Below the pieces are notes generated by a model that was not told the DNA's origin, did not search any database, and saw only the letters and a program-made list of their open reading frames with translations. Source: a virus (taxonomy: Duplodnaviria; Caudoviricetes). Taken from it: a stretch of 42,427 bases of DNA. Positions 23,818 to 33,424 of this stretch are shown here, piece by piece. The position numbers and the translations under genes are program-made. The number at the start of each line of letters is the position of its first letter. The first letter of the stretch is position 1. The DNA lies in the IMG/VR virus record IMGVR_UViG_3300017785_004324, positions 1 to 42,427 of that record, one strand, 5' to 3'.

Positions 23818-24234
23818 ATGACCAGCAATGAACTATTCAAGATACACCAAAATCTATGCGAGGATGCTCTATCATTGATGGAGCGTAAGAACCACGACTA
23901 CGCTGGAAAGAGTGGCGTGGAACCATTTGCCAATTTCACACGTGCAGAGGCAATGGGAATCACCACAACCGAAAGAGGAATGATGGTCAGGATGCTTGAT
24001 AAGATGAGTCGTCTTTCATCATTCATGGATTCGAAGGAATTCAAGGTGGAGGATGAGAAGCTTCGGGACACCATTCTCGACCTCATCAATTATTCAGTTT
24101 TACTCTATTCATACCTTGAAGAGAAGAACGGAAAGCAGTATACTATAGTCGAACTGAACAATCCACTGCCAGAGGATGCATACGGAATGTATTCCAAGGG
24201 TGGAGTTGTTCCAAATACAATCGACACCATATGA
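23818..24234 (+). CDS. Nucleotide modification-associated domain 1 (DUF1599-like) protein
   Basis: KNHDY, PFANF, RMLDKMSRL, DT..DL.NY; start taken at MTSNEL. Confidence 0.65.
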   Translation: MTSNELFKIHQNLCEDALSLMERKNHDYAGKSGVEPFANFTRAEAMGITTTERGMMVRMLDKMSRLSSFMDSKEFKVEDEKLRDTILDLINYSVLLYSYLEEKNGKQYTIVELNNPLPEDAYGMYSKGGVVPNTIDTI

Positions 24235-25694
24235 AATTCTACACCCATGTATTCTACGATGGCAAGCAAATCTGTTATCGTGGAATTGAAGATAATCGAC
24301 ACACCGTCGATTCTTTTTCATATAGCCCATCCTTGTTTGTTCCAGTAAACAAGGAAACCAAGTACAAGACAATCGATGGTAGGAATGCAGAGAAGATGGA
24401 GTTCTCCAATCTCTATGAGATGAGTGAATTCAAGAAGACATACGATAATGTCTCTGGGTTTGATCTTCACGGGGACATCGGTGTCGAGTATCAATACATC
24501 GCGGATGTACATAAGGGGAATGTCGAGTATGACTTCTCCAAGATCAACATCATGTACATCGACATTGAAACCACATGTGAAGATGGCTTCCCAGAGATTG
24601 CAAATCCCAAGGAAAAGATCATCGCCATCACTTGCATGATGAACAATCGAAAGATGGTTTTCTGTCTGGGGGAATTCACCACAGAAGATCCAACTATCAA
24701 TGTAAGGGAGTATGATGATGAATCTCAACTTCTTTATGACTTCGTTGATTATTTCAAGAACACTAAACCCGATATCATCACTGGATGGAATGTTCGATTC
24801 TTTGATATTCCATACATTGTGAATCGTCTAAAGGAGATCGATATCGATCCCAGAAGTCTCTCACCTTGGAATATTCTCAAGGAGAAGAAGATTGAAAAGA
24901 GTGGAAAGGAATACCTTGCATACGATGTTGTTGGAATTTCCATCATTGACTACTATGAACTCTACAAGACATTCACCTATGTGAATCAGGAATCTTATCG
25001 TCTTGATCACATTGCTTGGGTGGAGTTGGGTGAGAGAAAGATCTCGTATACTGAGTATGACAGCATCTCAGACTTCTATAAGAAGAATTTTCAGAAGTTC
25101 ATCGAATACAACATCAAGGATGTTCTTCTGGTCGAGAGACTGGAACAAAAGATGAAACTGATGGAACTCGCGGTTGCACTTGCATATTCTGCTGGTGTCA
25201 ATTTCAATGATGTGTTCTCTCAGGTTCGTACATGGGATGTCATCATCTACAACCATCTGATGAAGCGTGGTGTGGTTGTTCCACCGAAGAAGATTAGTTC
25301 CAAGGATGCTCAATATGCTGGTGCATATGTCAAGGAGCCAATCGTTGGAATGCACAACTGGGTAGTCTCCTTTGACATTGCAAGCATGTATCCATCATCG
25401 ATCATGCAATACAATATCTCACCAGAGACATTTGTGGATCAGATCTCGACAAGACCGAAGGCAACTGATATAATCAATCCATCGGAAAGCATGAAGAATC
25501 TATTTGCTGAGTGTAGGGATAATAATCTATCTCTTACCGCAAATGGTGCTTGCTTCACAACGGAGAAGCACGGATTTCTCCCAGAACTGATGGATAAGAT
25601 GTTCAAGGAACGAAAGATGTACAAGAATCAAATGCTTGACGCGAAGAAGAAGTTGGAAGCAGTCGAGGCAGAGATCAAGCGAAGGGGTCTATGA
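24231..25694 (+). CDS. gp43: Split family-B DNA polymerase, N-terminal part (gp43A: exonuclease, motif A, first fingers helix)
   Basis: ExoI DIETT, ExoII GWNVRFFD, ExoIII YNIKD, YAGAYV, motif A SFDIASMYPS, NISPET, GFLPELM; stops in the fingers domain. Confidence 0.95.
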   Translation: MKFYTHVFYDGKQICYRGIEDNRHTVDSFSYSPSLFVPVNKETKYKTIDGRNAEKMEFSNLYEMSEFKKTYDNVSGFDLHGDIGVEYQYIADVHKGNVEYDFSKINIMYIDIETTCEDGFPEIANPKEKIIAITCMMNNRKMVFCLGEFTTEDPTINVREYDDESQLLYDFVDYFKNTKPDIITGWNVRFFDIPYIVNRLKEIDIDPRSLSPWNILKEKKIEKSGKEYLAYDVVGISIIDYYELYKTFTYVNQESYRLDHIAWVELGERKISYTEYDSISDFYKKNFQKFIEYNIKDVLLVERLEQKMKLMELAVALAYSAGVNFNDVFSQVRTWDVIIYNHLMKRGVVVPPKKISSKDAQYAGAYVKEPIVGMHNWVVSFDIASMYPSSIMQYNISPETFVDQISTRPKATDIINPSESMKNLFAECRDNNLSLTANGACFTTEKHGFLPELMDKMFKERKMYKNQMLDAKKKLEAVEAEIKRRGL

Positions 25695-26242
25695 TGAATG
25701 TGATCGACTATTACAAGGACTGGGAAGCAACTGCGATTCTTGGTGATCTCAACACTAAGCGCAACAATTTCACCGTGATTGCAAGCAATCTTGAGAATGA
25801 TTTCAATATCGCCACATGCATTCGAAATTCAAATGCATTCATGGCATCAGAGGTTTGGATCTACGGTCGCAAGCAGTATGATCGCCGTGGAACGGTTGGA
25901 ACCCATCATTACACAAATTTAAAGCATGTGAAGACAATTGATAATGTTCATGATGCATTGAATGAACTACGAATGAAGCATGGGAACATTTGCATTGTTG
26001 GGATGGATAATATCGACAGGGCTACGAATATCAATCACTATGCATGGGATGAGCATACCCATACTGTTATGGTGTTTGGACAGGAGAAGAATGGAATTCC
26101 ACAGGAACTCCTGGATATTTGCGATCATGTGGTCTACATTCCACAGTATGGAAGTGTTCGTAGTCTGAATGTAGGCACTGCAAGTGGTATTGCAATGCAC
26201 TCATATTGCAGTTATGTACTTGACAGGATTCATGAACATTGA
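25691..26242 (+). CDS. SpoU/TrmH-family RNA 2'-O-methyltransferase
   Basis: N.AT.IR, FGQEKNGI, YIPQYGSVRSLNVGTASGIA SPOUT motifs. Confidence 0.9.
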   Translation: MMNVIDYYKDWEATAILGDLNTKRNNFTVIASNLENDFNIATCIRNSNAFMASEVWIYGRKQYDRRGTVGTHHYTNLKHVKTIDNVHDALNELRMKHGNICIVGMDNIDRATNINHYAWDEHTHTVMVFGQEKNGIPQELLDICDHVVYIPQYGSVRSLNVGTASGIAMHSYCSYVLDRIHEH

Positions 26243-26248
26243 TATAAT
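26220..26248 (+). promoter_or_regulatory. Perfect consensus sigma70 promoter
   Basis: TTGACA-N17-TATAAT upstream of a small basic ORF and tRNAs. Confidence 0.9.
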
Positions 26249-26265
26249 TTGGGAGGAGGTAGCAC

Positions 26266-26358
26266 ATGTCACGACCACAAGCACGGACAAAGTGCCGACG
26301 ACGAAGAAAGATCGGCAGCAAGAAGCGTCGAGCACGAAAGCTTGCATTGAAGAATTGA
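26266..26358 (+). CDS. 30-aa Arg/Lys-rich peptide MSRPQARTKCRRRRKIGSKKRRARKLALKN
   Basis: GGAGGAGGT Shine-Dalgarno directly after a consensus promoter; not in the ORF track. Confidence 0.75.
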   Translation: MSRPQARTKCRRRRKIGSKKRRARKLALKN

Positions 26359-26363
26359 TAGGA

Positions 26364-26434
26364 TACCCCGTGATGTAACGGTAGCATAGGAGATTCTGAT
26401 TCTTTTTGTCCTAGTTCGAATCTAGGCGGGGTAA
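26364..26434 (+). tRNA. tRNA-Gln(CUG)
   Basis: Acceptor TACCCCG/CGGGGTA, anticodon loop TT-CTG-AT, T arm CCTAG-TTCGAAT-CTAGG; CCA not encoded. Confidence 0.92.
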
Positions 26435-26437
26435 TAC

Positions 26438-26522
26438 GGGATTGTGGCGAAACTGACGAAACGCAAGGCACTTAAAATGCCTCACTTAAGAAACACTGTG
26501 GGTTTGAATCCCACCAATCCCA
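26438..26522 (+). tRNA. tRNA-Leu(UAA)
   Basis: Acceptor GGGATTG/CAATCCC, AGGCA-CTTAAAA-TGCCT, long variable region, T loop TTTGAAT. Confidence 0.88.
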
Positions 26523-26528
26523 TTTAAA

Positions 26529-26564
26529 AGCAGACGAAGTATATATAGTATAGGAGCGTCTGCT
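26529..26564 (+). promoter_or_regulatory. RBS-blocking hairpin enclosing a late-promoter-like box
   Basis: AGCAGACG/CGTCTGCT 8-bp stem ending at the HNH ATG; loop holds TATATATA and AGGAG. Confidence 0.65.
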
Positions 26565-27032
26565 ATGAGATATAATAGAATAAAACAATTAGGCAAAGAT
26601 AAATTTCAGGAATACGCAAATCAAGTTTTTTCTATAGCACAAATGTTGGAAAAACTTGGTTATAGCAATAAAGCTGGTGGTTCTTATCATGTGGTTAAAA
26701 AATATTTACAAGAATACCAGATAGATACTTCCCATTGGACTGGACAGGGATGGAGTAAGGGACAACAATTAAAAGATTGGTCGCAATATAACTCATATAA
26801 GAGTTCCAAAAAACATCTTATCACCGAAAGATCGCATAGATGTGAATTGTGTGGATTAACAGACTGGCGTGAATCTTCTATTCCATTAGAGGTTCACCAT
26901 AAAGATGGTAATAGAACAAATAATGAATATGATAATTTACAATTGCTTTGTCCAAACTGTCATGCTCTGACGGATACTTGGAAAGGTAAAGGTAAAAAAC
27001 ATCAAAGTGGTGGAACTGGTATACACGATTGA
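26565..27032 (+). CDS. Free-standing HNH homing endonuclease
   Basis: CELCG, LEVHHKDGNRTNN..NLQLLCPNCH; N-terminal IDTSHW.GQGW module. Confidence 0.9.
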   Translation: MRYNRIKQLGKDKFQEYANQVFSIAQMLEKLGYSNKAGGSYHVVKKYLQEYQIDTSHWTGQGWSKGQQLKDWSQYNSYKSSKKHLITERSHRCELCGLTDWRESSIPLEVHHKDGNRTNNEYDNLQLLCPNCHALTDTWKGKGKKHQSGGTGIHD

Positions 27033-27082
27033 TTCAAAATCAATTGCCTAACGGCATGTGGGTTCGATTCCCACCTTTGGTA
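27001..27082 (+). tRNA. tRNA-Leu(CAA)
   Basis: Acceptor ATCAAAG/CTTTGGT, ATTGA-TTCAAAA-TCAAT, variable arm TGCC/GGCA, GTGGG-TTCGATT-CCCAC. Confidence 0.9.
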
Positions 27083-27084
27083 TT

Positions 27085-27378
27085 ATGGAAATTGAAGACA
27101 TTCTCATGCGTAATGAGCAACTTGTTTTGGAGAACGAAGCTCTTCGTCAGCAAATCGAAGATCTCAAGAATGGCTTCGAGGGCTGTTGTCCTGCTTGTGA
27201 ACCCGTTGGTGGGATGAACAAGAAGTTGCGCGAGGAGCGCGACGAGGCTCGTCGCCTGTACTGTGAGGAGTTGGCATTCACAATCGAACTTGAGCGTGGC
27301 GAAGCAGGAAACCCTCTCGACCTTGCAGCGGAGAAGGGTTGGGGTGGACTCTATCAAAAGGAAGAATCGGATGAGTGA
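27085..27378 (+). CDS. Hypothetical protein with ERDEARR module
   Basis: MEIEDIL... coiled coil, C..CE.VG..N, LREERDEARR..A...GW. Confidence 0.65.
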   Translation: MEIEDILMRNEQLVLENEALRQQIEDLKNGFEGCCPACEPVGGMNKKLREERDEARRLYCEELAFTIELERGEAGNPLDLAAEKGWGGLYQKEESDE

Positions 27379-27532
27379 TCGTCATGTCATATGGGAACAA
27401 CACTACATCTCACTTTGGAGTGATGGGGAAATCGGTGTGTCTGATGGTGTTGGATATGTCGGAACGATTGGTGCAGAGGAAACCCGTGAACTATACGAAG
27501 TGCTTCGCAAGCATTATGGAGATGATAAATGA
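27371..27532 (+). CDS. Small hypothetical protein
   Basis: MSDRHVIW...; overlaps both neighbouring genes in operon style. Confidence 0.55.
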   Translation: MSDRHVIWEQHYISLWSDGEIGVSDGVGYVGTIGAEETRELYEVLRKHYGDDK

Positions 27533-27972
27533 GTAAGAAACCCACAAAGCAAGAACTCATCGACCATGTTGAATCACTCGTTGCAAAATGCGAGGAACTG
27601 ACCCGTGAGCGCGACGAAGCAAGGTGGGAAGTCTGTGGTTTTCATCACTTGACGGGATTCCTTGCGGGTGACTATGCCATCTCCCGTGGTTGGGATTACT
27701 TCAATGATGAAAGAAAGTGGCAAAAGTTTCCGCCATCGGTAACTGATTTCAAAGAGTTCCTGAAGGCTCATTCAGAGGAAGATCTCAAAACCATTGAGCG
27801 ACTACGGGAAGAGCGCGACGAGGCTCGGCGCTGCGCTTGCGCGACGGCATTGCCTTCGAACTATAAGGAATGGGAATCGCAGGACATCGACGCGGCGATG
27901 CAACTGATTGCACAGCAGCAGGGGTGGGACTGTTTCAAGGAGAACACCGACTACCTACAGGATTTAGGATAA
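27529..27972 (+). CDS. Hypothetical protein with two ERDEAR(R/W)...GWD modules
   Basis: GGAG RBS, ATGA overlap, internal duplication. Confidence 0.7.
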   Translation: MSKKPTKQELIDHVESLVAKCEELTRERDEARWEVCGFHHLTGFLAGDYAISRGWDYFNDERKWQKFPPSVTDFKEFLKAHSEEDLKTIERLREERDEARRCACATALPSNYKEWESQDIDAAMQLIAQQQGWDCFKENTDYLQDLG

Positions 27973-28236
27973 GGCATGAGCGGATCAATCTTCTTGGGGA
28001 ATATTCACCATGCTTACGCACAGACGGACGGAACCTACGCATTTCCAAACAGCCGAGAGGGCGACATGTTGAAGCAAGCCGTGCGCGAACTTGCCGCGAT
28101 GCGGGAGGAGCGCGACGAAGCGAGGAGACTGTATCTCGCCAGTAATTTCAACGAAGACAAGATCATCGCTGAAATGCGCCGCAACAAATGGGACTGTTTC
28201 AAGGAGAACACTGACTACCTACAGGATTTAGGATAA
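27925..28236 (+). repeat. 48-bp direct repeat (27925-27972 and 28189-28236, one mismatch)
   Basis: tgggactgtttcaaggagaacac(c/t)gactacctacaggatttaggataa ends two consecutive genes. Confidence 0.95.
27976..28236 (+). CDS. Hypothetical protein with ERDEARR module
   Basis: MREERDEARR...WDCFKENTDYLQDLG, C-terminus identical to the upstream gene. Confidence 0.65.
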   Translation: MSGSIFLGNIHHAYAQTDGTYAFPNSREGDMLKQAVRELAAMREERDEARRLYLASNFNEDKIIAEMRRNKWDCFKENTDYLQDLG

Positions 28237-28240
28237 TACC

Positions 28241-28405
28241 ATGAACAAGAGAAATATAATCGTACTAGCAACCCTTGCAGTCCTCCTCATCATCGTGATT
28301 GTGATGAACATGGGCGGCGATACCGATTCCGCAGACATTCGACCCGTTGCGGAAGGTTCGGTTAAAGCACCAGGGTCGGGAATCAAGATTGGAAACACAC
28401 AATGA
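28241..28405 (+). CDS. Small membrane-anchored/secreted protein (54 aa)
   Basis: MNKRN plus hydrophobic IIVLATLAVLLIIVIV; AGGA RBS; ATGA overlap with the next gene. Confidence 0.6.
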   Translation: MNKRNIIVLATLAVLLIIVIVMNMGGDTDSADIRPVAEGSVKAPGSGIKIGNTQ

Positions 28406-29037
28406 TTAAGACACTAATCGCAACAACCCTAATCGCAACTTCGGCACACGCAGAACTCTGCACCTTCGAGAACCTTCCTGCTCCCACGCTAGCCGAGGGC
28501 AACTCAGGATTCTATGTTGGCGCGGTGGGCAATTACGAAGGATTCAACTTCACCAGTGCATATCAGACCAACAACAATGTATATTCCTTCTTGAACAACA
28601 AGTGGGCATACTACGACCTCGTTGGTGGATCAGGATATTTTGGCTTCGACGAAGGCATCGTCGGAGATCGTGCGCTCTTCACTCCGTGGTCTTCTAATTC
28701 CTCCTACGACTATCGCATCAACCGCAATGAGTTGTGGAGGCTGAACAGCCTTGAAGTCACATCAATCTATAACAACATGACCGTGGTTATCGAAGGCTAC
28801 CGCTATGGGGTGGGTGTATTCACATACACAGCACAACTTTCCACGGCACAGCGAGTGAAACTCCTAATCTCCAATGTCTACCCTGGTCCGCTGAACAACA
28901 TCACGGAAATCAAGGTGTATGGTGCAGGGGTTGGTACTCATCTTGCCATCGACAACATTGACTATACGATTGTCCCTGCTCCATCGGCACTTGCGCTGAT
29001 CGGGATTGCTATGATTGGTGTTCGGAGGCGACGATGA
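28402..29037 (+). CDS. PEP-CTERM sorting-domain protein
   Basis: Signal peptide (..TSAHA) and C-terminal VPAPSALALIGIAMIGVRRRR. Confidence 0.88.
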   Translation: MIKTLIATTLIATSAHAELCTFENLPAPTLAEGNSGFYVGAVGNYEGFNFTSAYQTNNNVYSFLNNKWAYYDLVGGSGYFGFDEGIVGDRALFTPWSSNSSYDYRINRNELWRLNSLEVTSIYNNMTVVIEGYRYGVGVFTYTAQLSTAQRVKLLISNVYPGPLNNITEIKVYGAGVGTHLAIDNIDYTIVPAPSALALIGIAMIGVRRRR

Positions 29038-29246
29038 ACCGAGAACGCTACATCGAACTCGACAACAGCGGCAAGGGACTTACCGAGGAGGAGTACAATC
29101 AGGGTTGGCACTGGTGCGGCGAGTGGGACGATATGCTCGTAGGACCAGGAACGATTGAGGCAACGGTCTGTTCCTGCAACCATCGGAAGATTGAGGAGTG
29201 GAAGCAATCGGAGGAAGGGCAGCGAATGTTGAGAGAAGAAGCATGA
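29034..29246 (+). CDS. Hypothetical protein
   Basis: ATGA overlap with GGAGG RBS; LT.EE...GWHWC.EWD...C.C motif. Confidence 0.6.
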   Translation: MNRERYIELDNSGKGLTEEEYNQGWHWCGEWDDMLVGPGTIEATVCSCNHRKIEEWKQSEEGQRMLREEA

Positions 29247-29270
29247 TAAATAATCATAGATGATGTACCT

Positions 29271-29522
29271 ATGAAAAAAGATCTTAAGCAAGCGAAGAAA
29301 AACGCAGAGCATATTGCAAAGATCAAGATTGACAATGGTTGCTCAAAGTGTGGATATAAACTTCATCCAGCAGCATTGGAATTCCATCACTTGCAGGATA
29401 AGAAGCATAATATATCCAGAATAGCAAGATCTGGAGTTCCTCAGAATGTGCTTGACGAAGAGATAAAAAAGTGTATAATACTGTGCGCCAACTGCCATAG
29501 AGTTGAGCATTCAAAGCCCTAA
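29271..29522 (+). CDS. Small HNH endonuclease
   Basis: CSKCG, LEFHH, EIKKC..LCANCHR..H; preceded by GATAAATA at 29245. Confidence 0.85.
   Translation: MKKDLKQAKKNAEHIAKIKIDNGCSKCGYKLHPAALEFHHLQDKKHNISRIARSGVPQNVLDEEIKKCIILCANCHRVEHSKP
29452..29479 (+). promoter_or_regulatory. Sigma70-type promoter inside the HNH gene, upstream of the second tRNA cluster
   Basis: TTGACG-N16-TATAAT. Confidence 0.65.
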
Positions 29523-29589
29523 TAGATTAACTGGCTAAATCCCTGCCCTTTCAAGGCAGTGAGTCGGGGTTCGAGTCCCCGTTAGGGTA
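29516..29589 (+). tRNA. tRNA-Glu(UUC)
   Basis: GCCCTAA/TTAGGGT, CTGCC-CTTTCAA-GGCAG, CGGGG-TTCGAGT-CCCCG. Confidence 0.92.
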
Positions 29590-29592
29590 TTT

Positions 29593-29663
29593 GCAGATAT
29601 GATGTAGTGGCAACATAAGAGTTTTCCAAACTTTTCTCACGGGTTCGAATCCCGTTATCTGCT
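29593..29663 (+). tRNA. tRNA-Gly(UCC)
   Basis: GCAGATA/TATCTGC, U73, AGAGT-TTTCCAA-ACTTT, ACGGG-TTCGAAT-CCCGT. Confidence 0.92.
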
Positions 29664-29667
29664 TTAT

Positions 29668-29759
29668 GCGTAGTATCAGTCGAGTAGCGCACTCGGAGGC
29701 TCAGCTAGGATTGCAATGTACATTGCAATTGAGAAGGGGTTCAAGTCCCCCACTACGCT
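29668..29759 (+). ncRNA. Aberrant tRNA-like RNA with enlarged anticodon arm
   Basis: Perfect acceptor GCGTAGT/ACTACGC, T arm GGGG-TTCAAGT-CCCC, CGAGT/ACTCG hairpin, CTCAG/TTGAG stem enclosing a 20-nt palindrome. Confidence 0.65.
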
Positions 29760-29801
29760 ATCGGAGGGGTGCGTAATCCGTAGAAGAACGCGAATTGGTA
29801 G

Positions 29802-29868
29802 AGTCTCATGGTATAATGGAATTATCTTCGCAACACGGAGGATGTGGGTTCGAATCCCACTGAGACAG
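29802..29868 (+). ncRNA. Aberrant tRNA-like RNA with shrunken anticodon arm
   Basis: GTCTCA/TGAGAC acceptor, normal D arm (GTATAATGGAATTAT) and T arm, anticodon arm only TTCG-CAACA-CGGA. Confidence 0.65.
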
Positions 29869-29871
29869 TTT

Positions 29872-29942
29872 GCTCCCATAGTATAATGGCATTACCCTTG
29901 ATTTGTAATCATGAGAACCCAGTTCGATCCTGGGTGGGAGCT
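29872..29942 (+). tRNA. tRNA-Thr(UGU)
   Basis: GCTCCCA/TGGGAGC, loop TT-TGT-AA, CCCAG-TTCGATC-CTGGG. Confidence 0.9.
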
Positions 29943-29943
29943 T

Positions 29944-30093
29944 ATGAAAGATAAACGACAACATTCTGCTGGAAAGGGAGATTCTCTACGCCCAGTTGAC
30001 TATAAGAAGTGGTCGGAGAATTACGACCGAATTTTTAAAAAGAAAAGTAAGAAAGTAAAGAAAAATGACTCTCGGATTTCAGGACATAATTGA
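29944..30093 (+). CDS. Small basic hypothetical phage protein
   Basis: AGKGD..RP.D...W..NYDRIF motif recurrent in T4-like phages; the tRNA-Thr 3' end supplies GGAG. Confidence 0.6.
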   Translation: MKDKRQHSAGKGDSLRPVDYKKWSENYDRIFKKKSKKVKKNDSRISGHN

Positions 30094-30361
30094 TATTACT
30101 ATTGATTCAATTGCTGGATATTCGGAGGAGATGTATTCTGCCTCTTGGTTCAATAATATTGAGCATTCAATTTATGTGGCAATTATTCAGAACAATAGAT
30201 TTATTCTCGACCAATTCAAGCCATACCAAATCCAAGCAATGAAAGAATTAATTCAAATGAATAATTGGATTTGTTATGATTATGATATTTCTATGCCTGT
30301 TGTGAGGCCACTTGACTACATAATGATGGACAAGGTGGCCATCAAACATGGAGCAGACTAG
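30065..30361 (+). CDS. Hypothetical protein
   Basis: 98-aa ORF in operon order; SEE.Y.A.W...IE motif. Confidence 0.55.
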   Translation: MTLGFQDIIDITIDSIAGYSEEMYSASWFNNIEHSIYVAIIQNNRFILDQFKPYQIQAMKELIQMNNWICYDYDISMPVVRPLDYIMMDKVAIKHGAD

Positions 30362-30671
30362 ACATAGAGAGATTCTAGATCGTTATTCAAATGCCCTTCA
30401 GAGACTTGCCGATTCTGAAAAGGAAGAGCAAAATAAAAAAACAAAGATATCCAAAGTATTTTTGTTTTTTTCAATATTGATTCTCATGGCCTATTTCCAA
30501 CACTTGACTCCCAGAATTAGAATAACGACAAAAATACCAAGAACTGCTCTGTGTGATCTGATAAATAAAAATGATATCGTTGATATGCGTGATCAACCCT
30601 TTTGGACGGGGGTGCAAATCCCCCCGACTCCATTCGACACTATTGGCGTTCTGACGGAAACGCGGTCTTGA
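30348..30671 (+). CDS. Hypothetical protein; 3' part overlaps the tmRNA acceptor piece
   Basis: AAGGTGG RBS, ILDRYSNALQRLAD and a hydrophobic stretch; true 3' extent uncertain. Confidence 0.4.
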   Translation: MEQTRHREILDRYSNALQRLADSEKEEQNKKTKISKVFLFFSILILMAYFQHLTPRIRITTKIPRTALCDLINKNDIVDMRDQPFWTGVQIPPTPFDTIGVLTETRS

Positions 30672-30925
30672 CAAGAGATGCGCTTGCGTAAAACGGTCTA
30701 TCTAGTAATTGACCGACAAAGCAAGATAGATGGTGTAATCCATCATAGTGTCATAAACTACGGGGTCGAATAGAATCGACAAGGGGAAGTGAGCGTTAGG
30801 GAGATATCCGAGAGGTAGTCAACAACCCTCGTTAAATACCAAAGTTGGCAACATAAATGCCGCACCAATGCGGATGGCTGCTTGAAGCAGTGGGGATTGG
30901 TCATCCCGCATCTGAATTGACCACC
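30571..30925 (+). ncRNA. ssrA: Circularly permuted two-piece tmRNA (acceptor piece about 30571-30632, coding piece 30762 to about 30925; tag (A)AAPMRMAA)
   Basis: 3' tRNA-like end GGAC-GGGGG-TGCAAAT-CCCCC-CGACTCC-A precedes the 5' end GGGGTCG-AATAGAATCGAC; G3.U70 and A73; PK1; ATAAAT-GCC resume codon at 30859; tag ends AA-stop. Confidence 0.93.
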
Positions 30926-30952
30926 CACTAGTAATAGTGGGTTTATTTTTTT
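30923..30952 (+). terminator. Rho-independent terminator after tmRNA
   Basis: ACCCACTA-GTAA-TAGTGGGT followed by a T-rich tract. Confidence 0.85.
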
Positions 30953-31031
30953 ATACATACAATTAGGATGGCGGGATGAATTTTTTGTTTTGCTTTAGTA
31001 TCTCTTTTTACACGGGGGTCAGGGAACTTTT

Positions 31032-31349
31032 ATGCAAAATAACGAAGATTTTCACACGCAACTTCTCAAGTACGGCATCGACATAGGATTTCTTTTATCT
31101 GGATTTTTCGGGGCTTTGTTGCTTTCGATAAAGAAAAAGAAACAAAAGCTGAGCAAATCAATTGCTTGCATCTTTGCTGGGACCATTTGCGCGAACTATC
31201 TTACGCCTCTTATTTTGAATTTTGCCCCAGCCTCAATCCAGGAGAAGGGTAAGTATGCAGTGGCGTTCATGATGGGTTACATGGGACTTAAGGGTCTTGA
31301 GTTCGTTGTGGATTTCATCACTGACTACTTAGAATCAAAAAGACCTTGA
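31032..31349 (+). CDS. Holin-like membrane protein
   Basis: 105 aa with three hydrophobic segments (LSGFFGALL, GTICANYLTP, AFMMGYMGL) and a basic loop. Confidence 0.55.
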   Translation: MQNNEDFHTQLLKYGIDIGFLLSGFFGALLLSIKKKKQKLSKSIACIFAGTICANYLTPLILNFAPASIQEKGKYAVAFMMGYMGLKGLEFVVDFITDYLESKRP

Positions 31350-31373
31350 CAACAGAATTAACTGAAGTATAAT
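31346..31373 (+). promoter_or_regulatory. Sigma70-type promoter
   Basis: TTGACA-N16-TATAAT, 7 nt before the ATG at 31381. Confidence 0.8.
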
Positions 31374-31380
31374 AGGCCAA

Positions 31381-31578
31381 ATGAAGTTTGGTCTACACTT
31401 TACAAATTCAAATGGCGATGAGGATTGGATGCGGGAGAGTGATAAATCTATTTCCATCTGGGAATCCCAGAAGGAGGCAGATGATTGGCGAAGGAATCAT
31501 ACCGTAAATCCCCAGGGGTATGATGTGAAGAGAGTTACTCCAAGGATCTTGAAGGAAGATAAAGAGCAGTATAATTAG
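31381..31578 (+). CDS. Hypothetical protein
   Basis: 65-aa ORF directly after a consensus promoter. Confidence 0.6.
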   Translation: MKFGLHFTNSNGDEDWMRESDKSISIWESQKEADDWRRNHTVNPQGYDVKRVTPRILKEDKEQYN

Positions 31579-31613
31579 TGATATAGGCAATCAATATTTT
31601 CATATATAATTGT

Positions 31614-32324
31614 ATGAAAATATATTTTGTTTACAAAACAACAAATCTCTTAAATAATAAATTTTATATTGGGGCACATCAAACAGAGGATATAAATGAT
31701 AATTATCTTGGAAGTGGTGTGGTCTTGAATAAAGCAATAAAAAAATATGGAAAGGAAAATTTTAAAAGAGAAATTTTATTAATATGTGAAAACGCTGAAG
31801 AAATGTTTAATGAGGAAAAAAAATTAATTAATTCTTTCCTCGGAAATGAATTGTGTTATAATATAAAATATGGTGGGATTGGTGGATGGGATTATGTGAA
31901 CAATAATAATTTATTGATTGGTGACAAAAATCCAATGAAGAATGAAGTTATAAAGAATAAATGTGTGAATGCTGTTAAAGAAACAAAAAATAAAAATAAA
32001 CAAAAATATATTGATGTTGCTAATGAAAACTTAAAAAAAGCAACAGCAAAAAATACAGGATCAAAAAAACCAAACCATAGTAAGTTCATGCATCAGTATA
32101 TGAAGAATATCTGGGCTGAAAATAAAAATTTGATGAGAGACAGATTGTCTTCGTGGTTTGAAATTATAGATCCAAATAAAAACATTCATAAAACCAATAG
32201 ACTGCAAGATTTTTGTTTGCAAAATAATTTACCATACACTACAATATGGAAATCCAGTAAAGAAAACACTATAGTTAAAAAGGGTAAAGCTAAAGGTTGG
32301 TCATGCAAGATTATTCAAAATTAA
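31614..32324 (+). CDS. Free-standing GIY-YIG (Seg-like) homing endonuclease
   Basis: FVYKTTN..N.KFYIG.H, YLGSG, KYGKENF.REIL, E, YNIK.GG.GG; AT-rich; overlaps the gp43B start. Confidence 0.9.
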   Translation: MKIYFVYKTTNLLNNKFYIGAHQTEDINDNYLGSGVVLNKAIKKYGKENFKREILLICENAEEMFNEEKKLINSFLGNELCYNIKYGGIGGWDYVNNNNLLIGDKNPMKNEVIKNKCVNAVKETKNKNKQKYIDVANENLKKATAKNTGSKKPNHSKFMHQYMKNIWAENKNLMRDRLSSWFEIIDPNKNIHKTNRLQDFCLQNNLPYTTIWKSSKENTIVKKGKAKGWSCKIIQN

Positions 32325-33424
32325 ATACAGAGGATCTTCTGCTGCTTCGTGAGCAATTGCAGTTCGATGTATCTAAGTACCATAATTTTCAATTGGTACG
32401 AAAGATTCAATTGAATTCGGCTTACGGCGCAGTAGGTTAGGGAAATGAATTCTTTAGATACTACAGCACAGAACTGGCCGAGGCCGTTACACTGACTGGT
32501 CAATTGATTATTCAGTATATCGCATTTCAAGTCAATGACTTTCTAAACGATGCAGTTGGGACCAAGAATTTTGATTATGTCGTCTATTCAGACACGGACT
32601 CCATCTATCTCAATATGGAGGCGATAGTAAATAAATTCTGTGCGAACAAGACCACTTCGGAGAAGATCGACTATATCGATGGAATCTGCAAGAAGGTCAT
32701 GACACCATTCATTGAGAAGCAATTCTCAAAACTAGCTACTCATATGAACGCATATGAGAATCGCATCTCAATGGAACGAGAAGTCATTGCCGATAAGGGT
32801 ATCTGGGTTGCCAAGAAGAGGTATATGATGAATGTGTGGGATTCGGAAGGAATCCGATATTCTCAGCCAAAGCAGAAGATCATGGGTATTGAAACCACCA
32901 GATCTTCTACTCCAGAGGTAGTTCGCAAGAAACTGAAGGATTCTATTCACATTATCCTCAACAAGGACGAATCCGATCTTGTTTTGTTCGTGGAGGATTT
33001 CAAGAAAGAATTCTTCTCTCTTCCTCCAGAGGATATTGCGTTCCCACGGAGTGTGAATGGAATGAGCAAGTATGCTGATAAGCAGCAGATATACAAGAAG
33101 GGAACTCCTATTGCAGTGAAGGGTTCTTTGCTGTATAATCACTACATCAACAAGAAGAATCTTGGGAAGAAGTATAGCAAGATCTCAGAGGGTGAGAAGA
33201 TAAAGTTTCTTTATCTAAAGAAGCCAAATCCATTGGCTGGATACAAGGGTGATGATTGTGTCATCGCCTTTCCGCAGAAGATTCCAGCGGAATTTGAAAT
33301 TGGTCCATATGTTGATTATTCATTGCAGTTCGAGAAGGCATTCATCGATCCGTTGAATACCATTCTTGAGACAATTGGATGGAACTACGAAGAGAAGAGT
33401 ACACTGGAATCACTTTTTATTTGA
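32303..33424 (+). CDS. gp43: Split family-B DNA polymerase, C-terminal part (gp43B) with an in-frame TAG at 32438-32440
   Basis: MQDYSKL...[33 protein letters not shown] is in frame with the tracked ORF 32504-33424 ([23 protein letters not shown]). Confidence 0.9.

Follow-up and report, generated by a model that had tools for sequence, protein, structure and literature searches.

A recurrent, mobile interruption of the DNA polymerase gene gp43B in T4-like phages, most likely crossed by a ribosomal stop-hop

The DNA analyzed here (IMG/VR record IMGVR_UViG_3300017785_004324, positions 1 to 42,427, hereafter the window) is a 42 kilobase (kb) fragment of a T4-like phage in which the DNA polymerase gp43 is split into two genes. 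The first, gp43A (24231-25694, + strand), encodes the exonuclease and the N-terminal half of the polymerase, as judged from its translation and its matches to Pfam DNA_pol_B_exo1 and DNA_pol_B, and lies 5.9 kb upstream of a nuclease gene. The second, gp43B, starts at ATG 32303 on the same strand and is interrupted. Its part 1 (32303-32437, + strand) consists of 45 open codons, covering an N-terminal extension, the fingers helix and motif B, and ends in GGT (32435-32437), which we call the take-off codon. An in-frame TAG (32438-32440, + strand) follows directly, and then GGA (32441-32443, + strand), the candidate landing codon at +6; recipient strains without the insert read GCG GTA GGA AAT here. 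Part 2 (32444-33424, + strand) is open in the same frame from NEFFRYY to the C-terminus and carries the DTDS motif. The junction reads TTG AAT TCG GCT TAC GGC GCA GTA GGT TAG GGA AAT GAA TTC TTT AGA TAC TAC, with GTA GGT TAG GGA AAT at 32432-32446. Compared with solved gp43 chains such as 1ig9_A, gp43B has an exact two-residue insertion at motif B, and compared with two uninterrupted relatives (loci L001 and L003) an exact insertion of 6 nucleotides (nt). The initial annotation of this DNA had described an in-frame TAG flanked by intact polymerase and an exact two-codon insertion rather than a point nonsense mutation, and both descriptions hold.

The six bases are real, and an assembly error is an unlikely origin for them. 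They were found with 0 differences in Logan contigs, which are assembled sequences and not raw reads, of two sequencing runs: X1, the possible source of the window, and X2, which comes from another sample and another study and matches the window over 31400-32687 with 0 differences. Assembly error, for which the initial annotation had proposed a check, was rejected because the contigs of the second study carry the same letters. An amber-recoded or suppressor-bearing phage was rejected as well, since TAG is the normal terminator of 4 of the 47 genes in the window and ARAGORN and Rfam scans of this 42 kb genome fragment found no amber suppressor (CUA) tRNA. The long open reading frames (ORFs) of the window are open under translation table 11. 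Similarly, no suppressor was found among the 25 ARAGORN tRNAs of the cluster in a complete genome with an interrupted gp43B (G001), or among six more tRNAs read there by eye. The tRNA-Gly(UCC) that had been listed as encoded in the window is present at 29593-29663 (+ strand, anticodon TCC).

Interruptions recur at this site in other phages. Pattern scans of viral and metagenome contigs, together with a nuclease-anchored scan (the best 80 of 470), yielded 69 different junctions at which gp43B is interrupted; of 68 Gly-plus-stop contexts, nine were dropped (four archaeal-type Gly-Trp sequences without a gap, and five chance or truncated matches). The stop directly follows the take-off codon, in frame, in all 69. 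Gap lengths are 4 nt (3 cases), 5 (23), 6 (12), 7 (2), 8 (5), 9 (10), 10 (10), and 11 (4), so that the gaps fall into frames 0, +1, and +2 in 22, 15, and 32 junctions; the stop is TAG in 49, TGA in 11, and TAA in 9. In 64/69 the take-off and landing codons agree at their first two positions (52 Gly, 10 Leu with CTN to CTN, and 2 Ala; 30 exact), and the two codons vary together, Gly with Gly, Leu with Leu, and Ala with Ala. The commonest natural form, GGT TA GGN, corresponds to a +5 move, while many of the 9-nt gaps resemble L-G-stop-L-G. Gap scans that required neither a stop nor a landing codon found 24 true gp43 inserts, all of them stop-first with a GGN landing codon; these scans also matched 23 other distinct sequences that are not polymerase genes. 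The nuclease-anchored scan, again without such a requirement, gave 32 gaps, every one stop-first and 28 of them matched. Among the interrupted gp43B junctions, including those from scans not requiring a stop, no sense-codon insertion was seen at the site. Gly-stop-Gly and other gap lengths are thus found at the same site in homologues, as the initial annotation had asked.

On comparison of these sequences, we consider it probable that the gp43B interruption, which is real, recurrent and mobile, is crossed by a ribosomal stop-hop. UAG would enter the A site and the peptidyl-tRNA-Gly would leave GGU, slide 6 nt and re-pair on GGA; translation would then resume at AAU, restoring a polymerase of consensus length. 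Because the set contains three frames, three stops and matched codon pairs, no single readthrough, suppression or frameshift fits it, whereas a peptidyl-tRNA hop does. One translational event would cover nearly all junctions and restore the consensus length in each. The hop over the amber codon from Gly to Gly had been suggested for the window in the initial annotation, and the comparison, with gaps of 4-11 nt and co-varying codons, argues strongly for it. In the window itself, readthrough could add to the hop. The RNA-labelled runs X18 and X20 do not cover the site and are neutral as evidence.

The gene upstream of the interruption (31614-32324, + strand) encodes a free-standing GIY-YIG homing-endonuclease-like protein of 236 amino acids and overlaps the gp43B start by 22 nt (Pfam SegE_GIY-YIG, E 1.9e-6, above cut-off). 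The protein is 41% identical over 160 aligned positions to the nuclease whose gene separates gp43A from gp43B in Aeromonas phage Aes120; the nuclease of another locus, L169, is 43% identical to the Aes120 protein over its own length. In close strains without the 6 nt, the stretch with the nuclease gene and the gp43B N-terminal extension (31571-32380, + strand) is replaced by 97 other letters, with the joint running from 31570 to 32381 in X3 and X4. These near-identical strains lack the six letters at 32435 on the same contigs that carry the 97-letter replacement. The X5 and X10 strains also lack the 6 nt, their divergence from the window beginning before 32381, and one X3 contig has the end of the nuclease gene together with an insert one base shorter. 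Around the gap (32381-32509, + strand) lies a cluster of synonymous differences from the cassette-free strains, 11/11 of those tested at 32419-32509 being synonymous, which is likely a co-converted tract. On these comparisons, the 6-nt gap is the 3' end of a mobile cassette made up of the GIY-YIG gene and the first 45 gp43B codons.

We regard the cassette as mobile because close strains lack both the gap and the nuclease region and because the gap label is patchy on the tree of part 2 (164 rows). The label changes 26 times there, at least 14 of the changes being forced by strong branches, and the interrupted L005 lies only 0.01 from the uninterrupted L003; from the 26 changes it follows that lineages either pass the cassette to one another or lose it repeatedly. 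Of 70 gap loci, 40 have most of the nuclease and 14 have a part of it; in the other 16 it was undetected, and 6 of these have short flanks. The gap is kept even where the nuclease is lost and gp43A abuts gp43B (L009, L152, L165, L177, L190, L209, and L212). At L183, L196, L115, and L002, nucleases of other types or with other C-termini lie between gp43A and gp43B, and three of these loci have a hop gap, which thus goes with more than a single nuclease. The hop proposed in the initial annotation is retained and the hairpin it cited is not (see below), while the adjacent nuclease, the cassette and the likely purpose of the gap had been overlooked.

The purpose is suggested by what nuclease carriers have at motif B. 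The 80 nuclease loci reduced to 57 distinct and 50 evaluable ones, of which 32 have a gap, 15 read YG-S-x, and 3 read YG-A-C; none of the 50 keeps the ordinary YG-A-[ILVM]-G site. In 118 evaluable uninterrupted controls (120 loci fetched from an estimated 15,000 stretches), A-[ILVMF] is found in 109 and S-x or A-C in none. No uninterrupted control showed the nuclease upstream, although 40 of the 120 may have short flanks. The 18 nuclease-bearing loci without a gap (L246-L293, YG-S-x or YG-A-C) are candidate intronless-homing alleles that change motif B.

Five cultured phages, Aes120, phiAS4, Aes002, 25, and E. coli phage G2285, have a related nuclease between 43A and 43B, and all five have a long insert of about 250-370 nt (boundaries placed from the sequence) within the Leu codon that directly precedes this Gly. 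Rfam identifies the insert of Aes120 as a group I intron, the annotation does so for that of G2285, and PMC2993671 for that of phage 25. The simplest reading of these sequences is that the nuclease targets the motif B site and that carriers always alter this site, by an intron, a hop gap or a residue change. Ordinary gp43 alleles are probable substrates of the nuclease, which would cut them at motif B; the gap would make its own allele immune, and the hop would hide the gap from the protein. The gap probably shields the nuclease target as the T4 gene 60 gap does.

The interrupted gp43B genes look alive by their sequences. Part 2 is open to the C-terminus in 58/70 junctions and open off the contig in 9. 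Early stops were found in three, in L211 and L297 at intein-like inserts after DTDS (by eye) and in L027 by a frameshift. The ratio of nonsynonymous to synonymous polymorphism (pN/pS) is 0.04-0.21 in five close pairs. The complete genome G001 (terminal repeats, 100%) has a single gp43B match, which is interrupted by a 5-nt gap. A tRNA at G001:C1:18488-18559, with the anticodon Gly(GCC) by eye, fits the GGT/GGT pair of G001, while Gly(TCC) of the window would land on GGA; these are two cases only. Intein-like inserts at DTDS were seen by eye in gp43B of L286 as well as of L297 and L211, and that of L286 is split into several ORFs, like "fractured genes". One locus found in genome contigs (L433, 8-nt gap) sits in a Melainabacteria bin, an assignment that may be wrong.

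Upstream of the window gap, a stem-loop is predicted at 32359-32421 (+ strand; -16.9 kcal/mol, z -3.35, 2/200 shuffles as good). It ends 13-17 nt before the take-off codon and is a candidate stimulator. The initial annotation had pointed instead to a weak hairpin at the stop (TAGGGAA/TTCTTTA), which can form (-3.3 kcal/mol) but only at chance level (z -0.38, 63/200 shuffles as good); the structure signal lies upstream. The set of loci gives a similar picture: over positions -60 to -10, the folding z is -1.25 for gap loci against 0.02 in 70 of 115 controls. Under a synonymous-codon null for positions -72 to -24, it is -1.91 for gap loci (n=68), -0.27 for controls (69), and -0.80 for nuclease loci without a gap (16), and nothing comparable was found downstream of the landing codon under this null. 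The interrupted L005 folds (z -2.78), while its uninterrupted near twin L003 does not (+0.64). At two synonymous pair positions in 23 gap loci, the bases are complementary in 29/46 instances against 22.6 in shuffled data (p 0.03). The relatedness of the sequences inflates all these structure figures. A conserved Leu and Arg of the N-terminal extension, which bear on the question of a nascent-peptide stimulator, also occur in nuclease loci without a gap. Gene 60 has its 5' stem-loop 9 nt ahead of the take-off codon (bioRxiv 10.1101/2024.12.09.627546), and the predicted stem-loop, forming on mRNA that leaves the ribosome, would probably stimulate the hop in a like manner.

Four other explanations were weighed. 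It is unlikely that each gap length has its own ordinary recoding event at a leaky stop, with readthrough in the window and -1 or +1 shifts elsewhere. The window gap is indeed in frame, as a two-residue insertion; readthrough would account for 14 of 56 Gly-type junctions, a -1 shift for 29, and a +1 shift for 7; and the 4-nt class GGT TAG C fits a +1 shift as well as it fits a near-cognate hop. This explanation, however, requires three mechanisms and three stops at one site, does not predict the matched Leu-Leu and Ala-Ala pairs, and would add residues right after motif B, where sense insertions were not seen. The remaining six Gly-type junctions fit none of these events, since in the frame used downstream another stop immediately precedes the landing codon. 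Amber readthrough, which the initial annotation had kept as its alternative, thus fits at most the 14 of 56, and the missing suppressor tRNA and the use of TAG as an ordinary terminator in the window speak against it. We consider it very unlikely that a trans-acting ribozyme or a nuclease-ligase pair excises the gap at the mRNA level, the inserts being micro-intron remnants. The long insert of the cultured relatives does lie 2 nt before the same Gly codon, and it is a group I intron in Aes120. For 56/56 junctions a loose excision "after U, ending in G" that restores an open frame can be drawn, but this group I-type test is too permissive to discriminate; an exact-length U..G excision is available for only 32/56, and not for the window. 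Rfam detects the group I intron of Aes120 but none in the 42 kb of the window, the gap sequences share no motif beyond the stop, the junction is unstructured, and removal from the RNA would need no in-frame stop beside the take-off codon.

Nor is it at all probable that the 45-residue peptide and the remainder are made separately by re-initiation, giving a three-part polymerase. In Aeromonas phage 25, gp43 already works as two subunits (PMC2988022). Against a restart stands the lack of a conserved start: the first ATG, GTG or TTG lies 2-61 codons past the landing codon, an upstream in-frame start is found in only 8/56 junctions, and most restarts would lose the conserved N-x-x-F-R-Y segment. 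We give similarly little credence to the cassette being a parasite that inactivates gp43B and leaves its carriers defective or helper-dependent. Selfish nucleases are able to spread harmful alleles, and L027 has its downstream frameshift, but part 2 is intact in 67/70 as far as it is readable and is under purifying selection, seven loci retain the gap after loss of the nuclease, and G001, a complete genome, has no second copy of gp43B. The stop-hop remains the reading we prefer.

Several observations weigh against it all the same. Landing is only near-cognate in 5/69 junctions: GGT to AGC with a 4-nt gap in three cases and TCC to ACC with an 8-nt gap in two. Near-cognate loci are L116/L167, L120, L175/L181, L207, L277, and L278 (GGT TAG C, 4 nt; TCC TAG TT ACC, 8 nt), and such junctions would lend themselves to probing a +1 shift or how much mismatch is tolerated on landing. 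In the window, GGU and GGA agree at only two of three positions, and GGG at 32440-32442 (+5), which overlaps the landing codon, may compete with it out of frame. The matched codons may stem in part from overlap between the cassette end and the recipient gene, and not from selection for re-pairing. Many junctions come from scans that required a stop codon, and the sequences are related, so that p-values are inflated. There is no take-off hairpin (take-off region z +0.32) and no excess of Shine-Dalgarno sequences near the take-off codon, anti-Shine-Dalgarno pairing being no stronger than in controls. RNAalifold gave no consensus structure over all loci and only 6 pairs in the clade of the window, and L001 folds well (z -2.68) although it is uninterrupted. 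Unstimulated hops occur at a low level (bioRxiv 10.1101/2024.12.09.627546). The later frameshift in gp43B of L027 counts on the same side, as does the fact that the 18 nuclease loci without a gap fall mostly in one clade. Finally, no gap-bearing phage was found among the matches listed in searches of the phage collection, a minority of which were inspected; the five nearest nuclease carriers inspected had long inserts instead.

Other features of the window were recorded. The roughly 6 kb between gp43A and gp43B (25695-31613) hold a SpoU-like RNA methyltransferase gene (25691-26242), tRNAs, a transfer-messenger RNA (tmRNA), and two HNH genes (26565-27032 and 29271-29522). The tmRNA is of the permuted, two-piece type (30543-30976, + strand; Rfam RF04321 at 30573-30885), and its tag reads AAPMRMAA by ARAGORN. 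A tRNA-Leu(CAA) at 27001-27082 overlaps the end of the HNH ORF at 26565-27032 and the predicted start of an ORF at 27058-27378. A tRNA-like sequence at 29802-29868 (+ strand), detected by Rfam (34 bits) but not by ARAGORN, has an atypical anticodon loop and is possibly a pseudo-tRNA. Three small ORFs within 27058-28236 have in common a repeated "REERDEARR" segment, and two of them share the ending "CFKENTDYLQDLG". At 28402-29037 (+ strand), a secreted-looking protein of 211 amino acids carries a PEP-CTERM-like tail (weak NCBIfam match, below cut-off); a similar tail occurs in L016 and is a possible host clue, but this weak match and the permuted tmRNA do not fix the host.

Very few natural genes are established cases of programmed bypassing. 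We lean, by a modest degree, towards a wider picture in which natural stop-hopping over gaps of only 4-11 nt yields the essential DNA polymerase in a widespread family of T4-like phages, using Gly, Leu or Ala tRNAs and at most an upstream stem-loop. Hop gap, intron and residue change would then be interchangeable, each serving a homing nuclease to protect its own allele from cutting, and bypass elements would arise cheaply and repeatedly from junctions between cassette and recipient. If this is true, dozens of wild phages depend on a stop hop for their replicase, and a single nuclease target site can be protected by either a bypass gap or a group I intron. Differing in gap length, frame, stop and codon pair, the 69 junctions offer a natural allelic series for the minimal needs of a ribosome hop, and this series also bears on how elements of the gene 60 type begin. 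Gene callers will read the interrupted polymerases as broken or truncated.

No bypass or stop hop in gp43 was found in the literature searched, whose coverage excluded subscription journals and bioRxiv supplements, including the tables of Manning and Atkins. The closest parallel is the T4 gene 60/MobA cassette. As there, a nuclease gene overlaps an N-terminal extension of about 45 codons whose last codon is the take-off codon, and a stop, the gap and the matching landing codon come next; some codon pairs have a wobble mismatch, the gap outlives the loss of the nuclease, and the cassette is present or absent among close relatives. The MobA paper reports that the insert prevents self-nicking and that in some metagenomic clades GIY-YIG genes take the place of MobA (Manning and Atkins, bioRxiv 10.1101/2022.08.31.505936). 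The differences are that the target is motif B of gp43B here and the topoisomerase large-subunit gene there, that the gaps span 4-11 nt here and 20-50 nt there, that the gp43B set has no take-off stem-loop or mini-Shine-Dalgarno sequence, and that its take-off codons are Gly, Leu, Ala, and Ser, compared with Gly or Asp in the MobA set. The gp43B cassette would work like the gene 60/MobA cassette but, by its target gene, gap length, and lack of a take-off stem-loop and mini-Shine-Dalgarno sequence, is not a member of that class.

The cassette also resembles the seg43 cassette of phage 25, in which a related GIY-YIG gene lies directly upstream of gp43B of a split polymerase and the interruption is within two codons of the same site. 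Many relatives have the same gene order, while the window has its gp43A another 5.9 kb upstream; and where phages 25, Aes120, Aes002, phiAS4, and vB_EcoM_G2285 have the long insert, the window has a 6-nt gap and no intron. The seg43 nuclease is reported to cut intron-free 43B alleles (Petrov 2010). The phage 25 intron was predicted to use a free-standing nuclease (PMC2993671).

Short natural coding gaps that are bypassed are also known from the 10-nt bypasses in the terminase of the Streptomyces phage phiHau3 and from the Magnusiomyces mitochondrial inserts (PMC10732093, PMC5009743). There, in other genes and organisms, a rare or unused sense codon is the trigger, in place of the stop in gp43B, and the available portions of these two sources describe no nuclease cassette with the gaps. 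Synthetic "stop hops" of +5 and +6 were described by Weiss et al. 1987 (as cited in PMC5009743, PMC10732093, and bioRxiv 10.1101/2024.12.09.627546), and stop hops that decode 9 nt as one residue are known from constructs; according to the 2016 review, in-frame stop hops were not then known from nature (PMC5009743). The synthetic hops took place at a low level, in constructs without stimulators, whereas gp43B is an essential gene that would depend on its hop.
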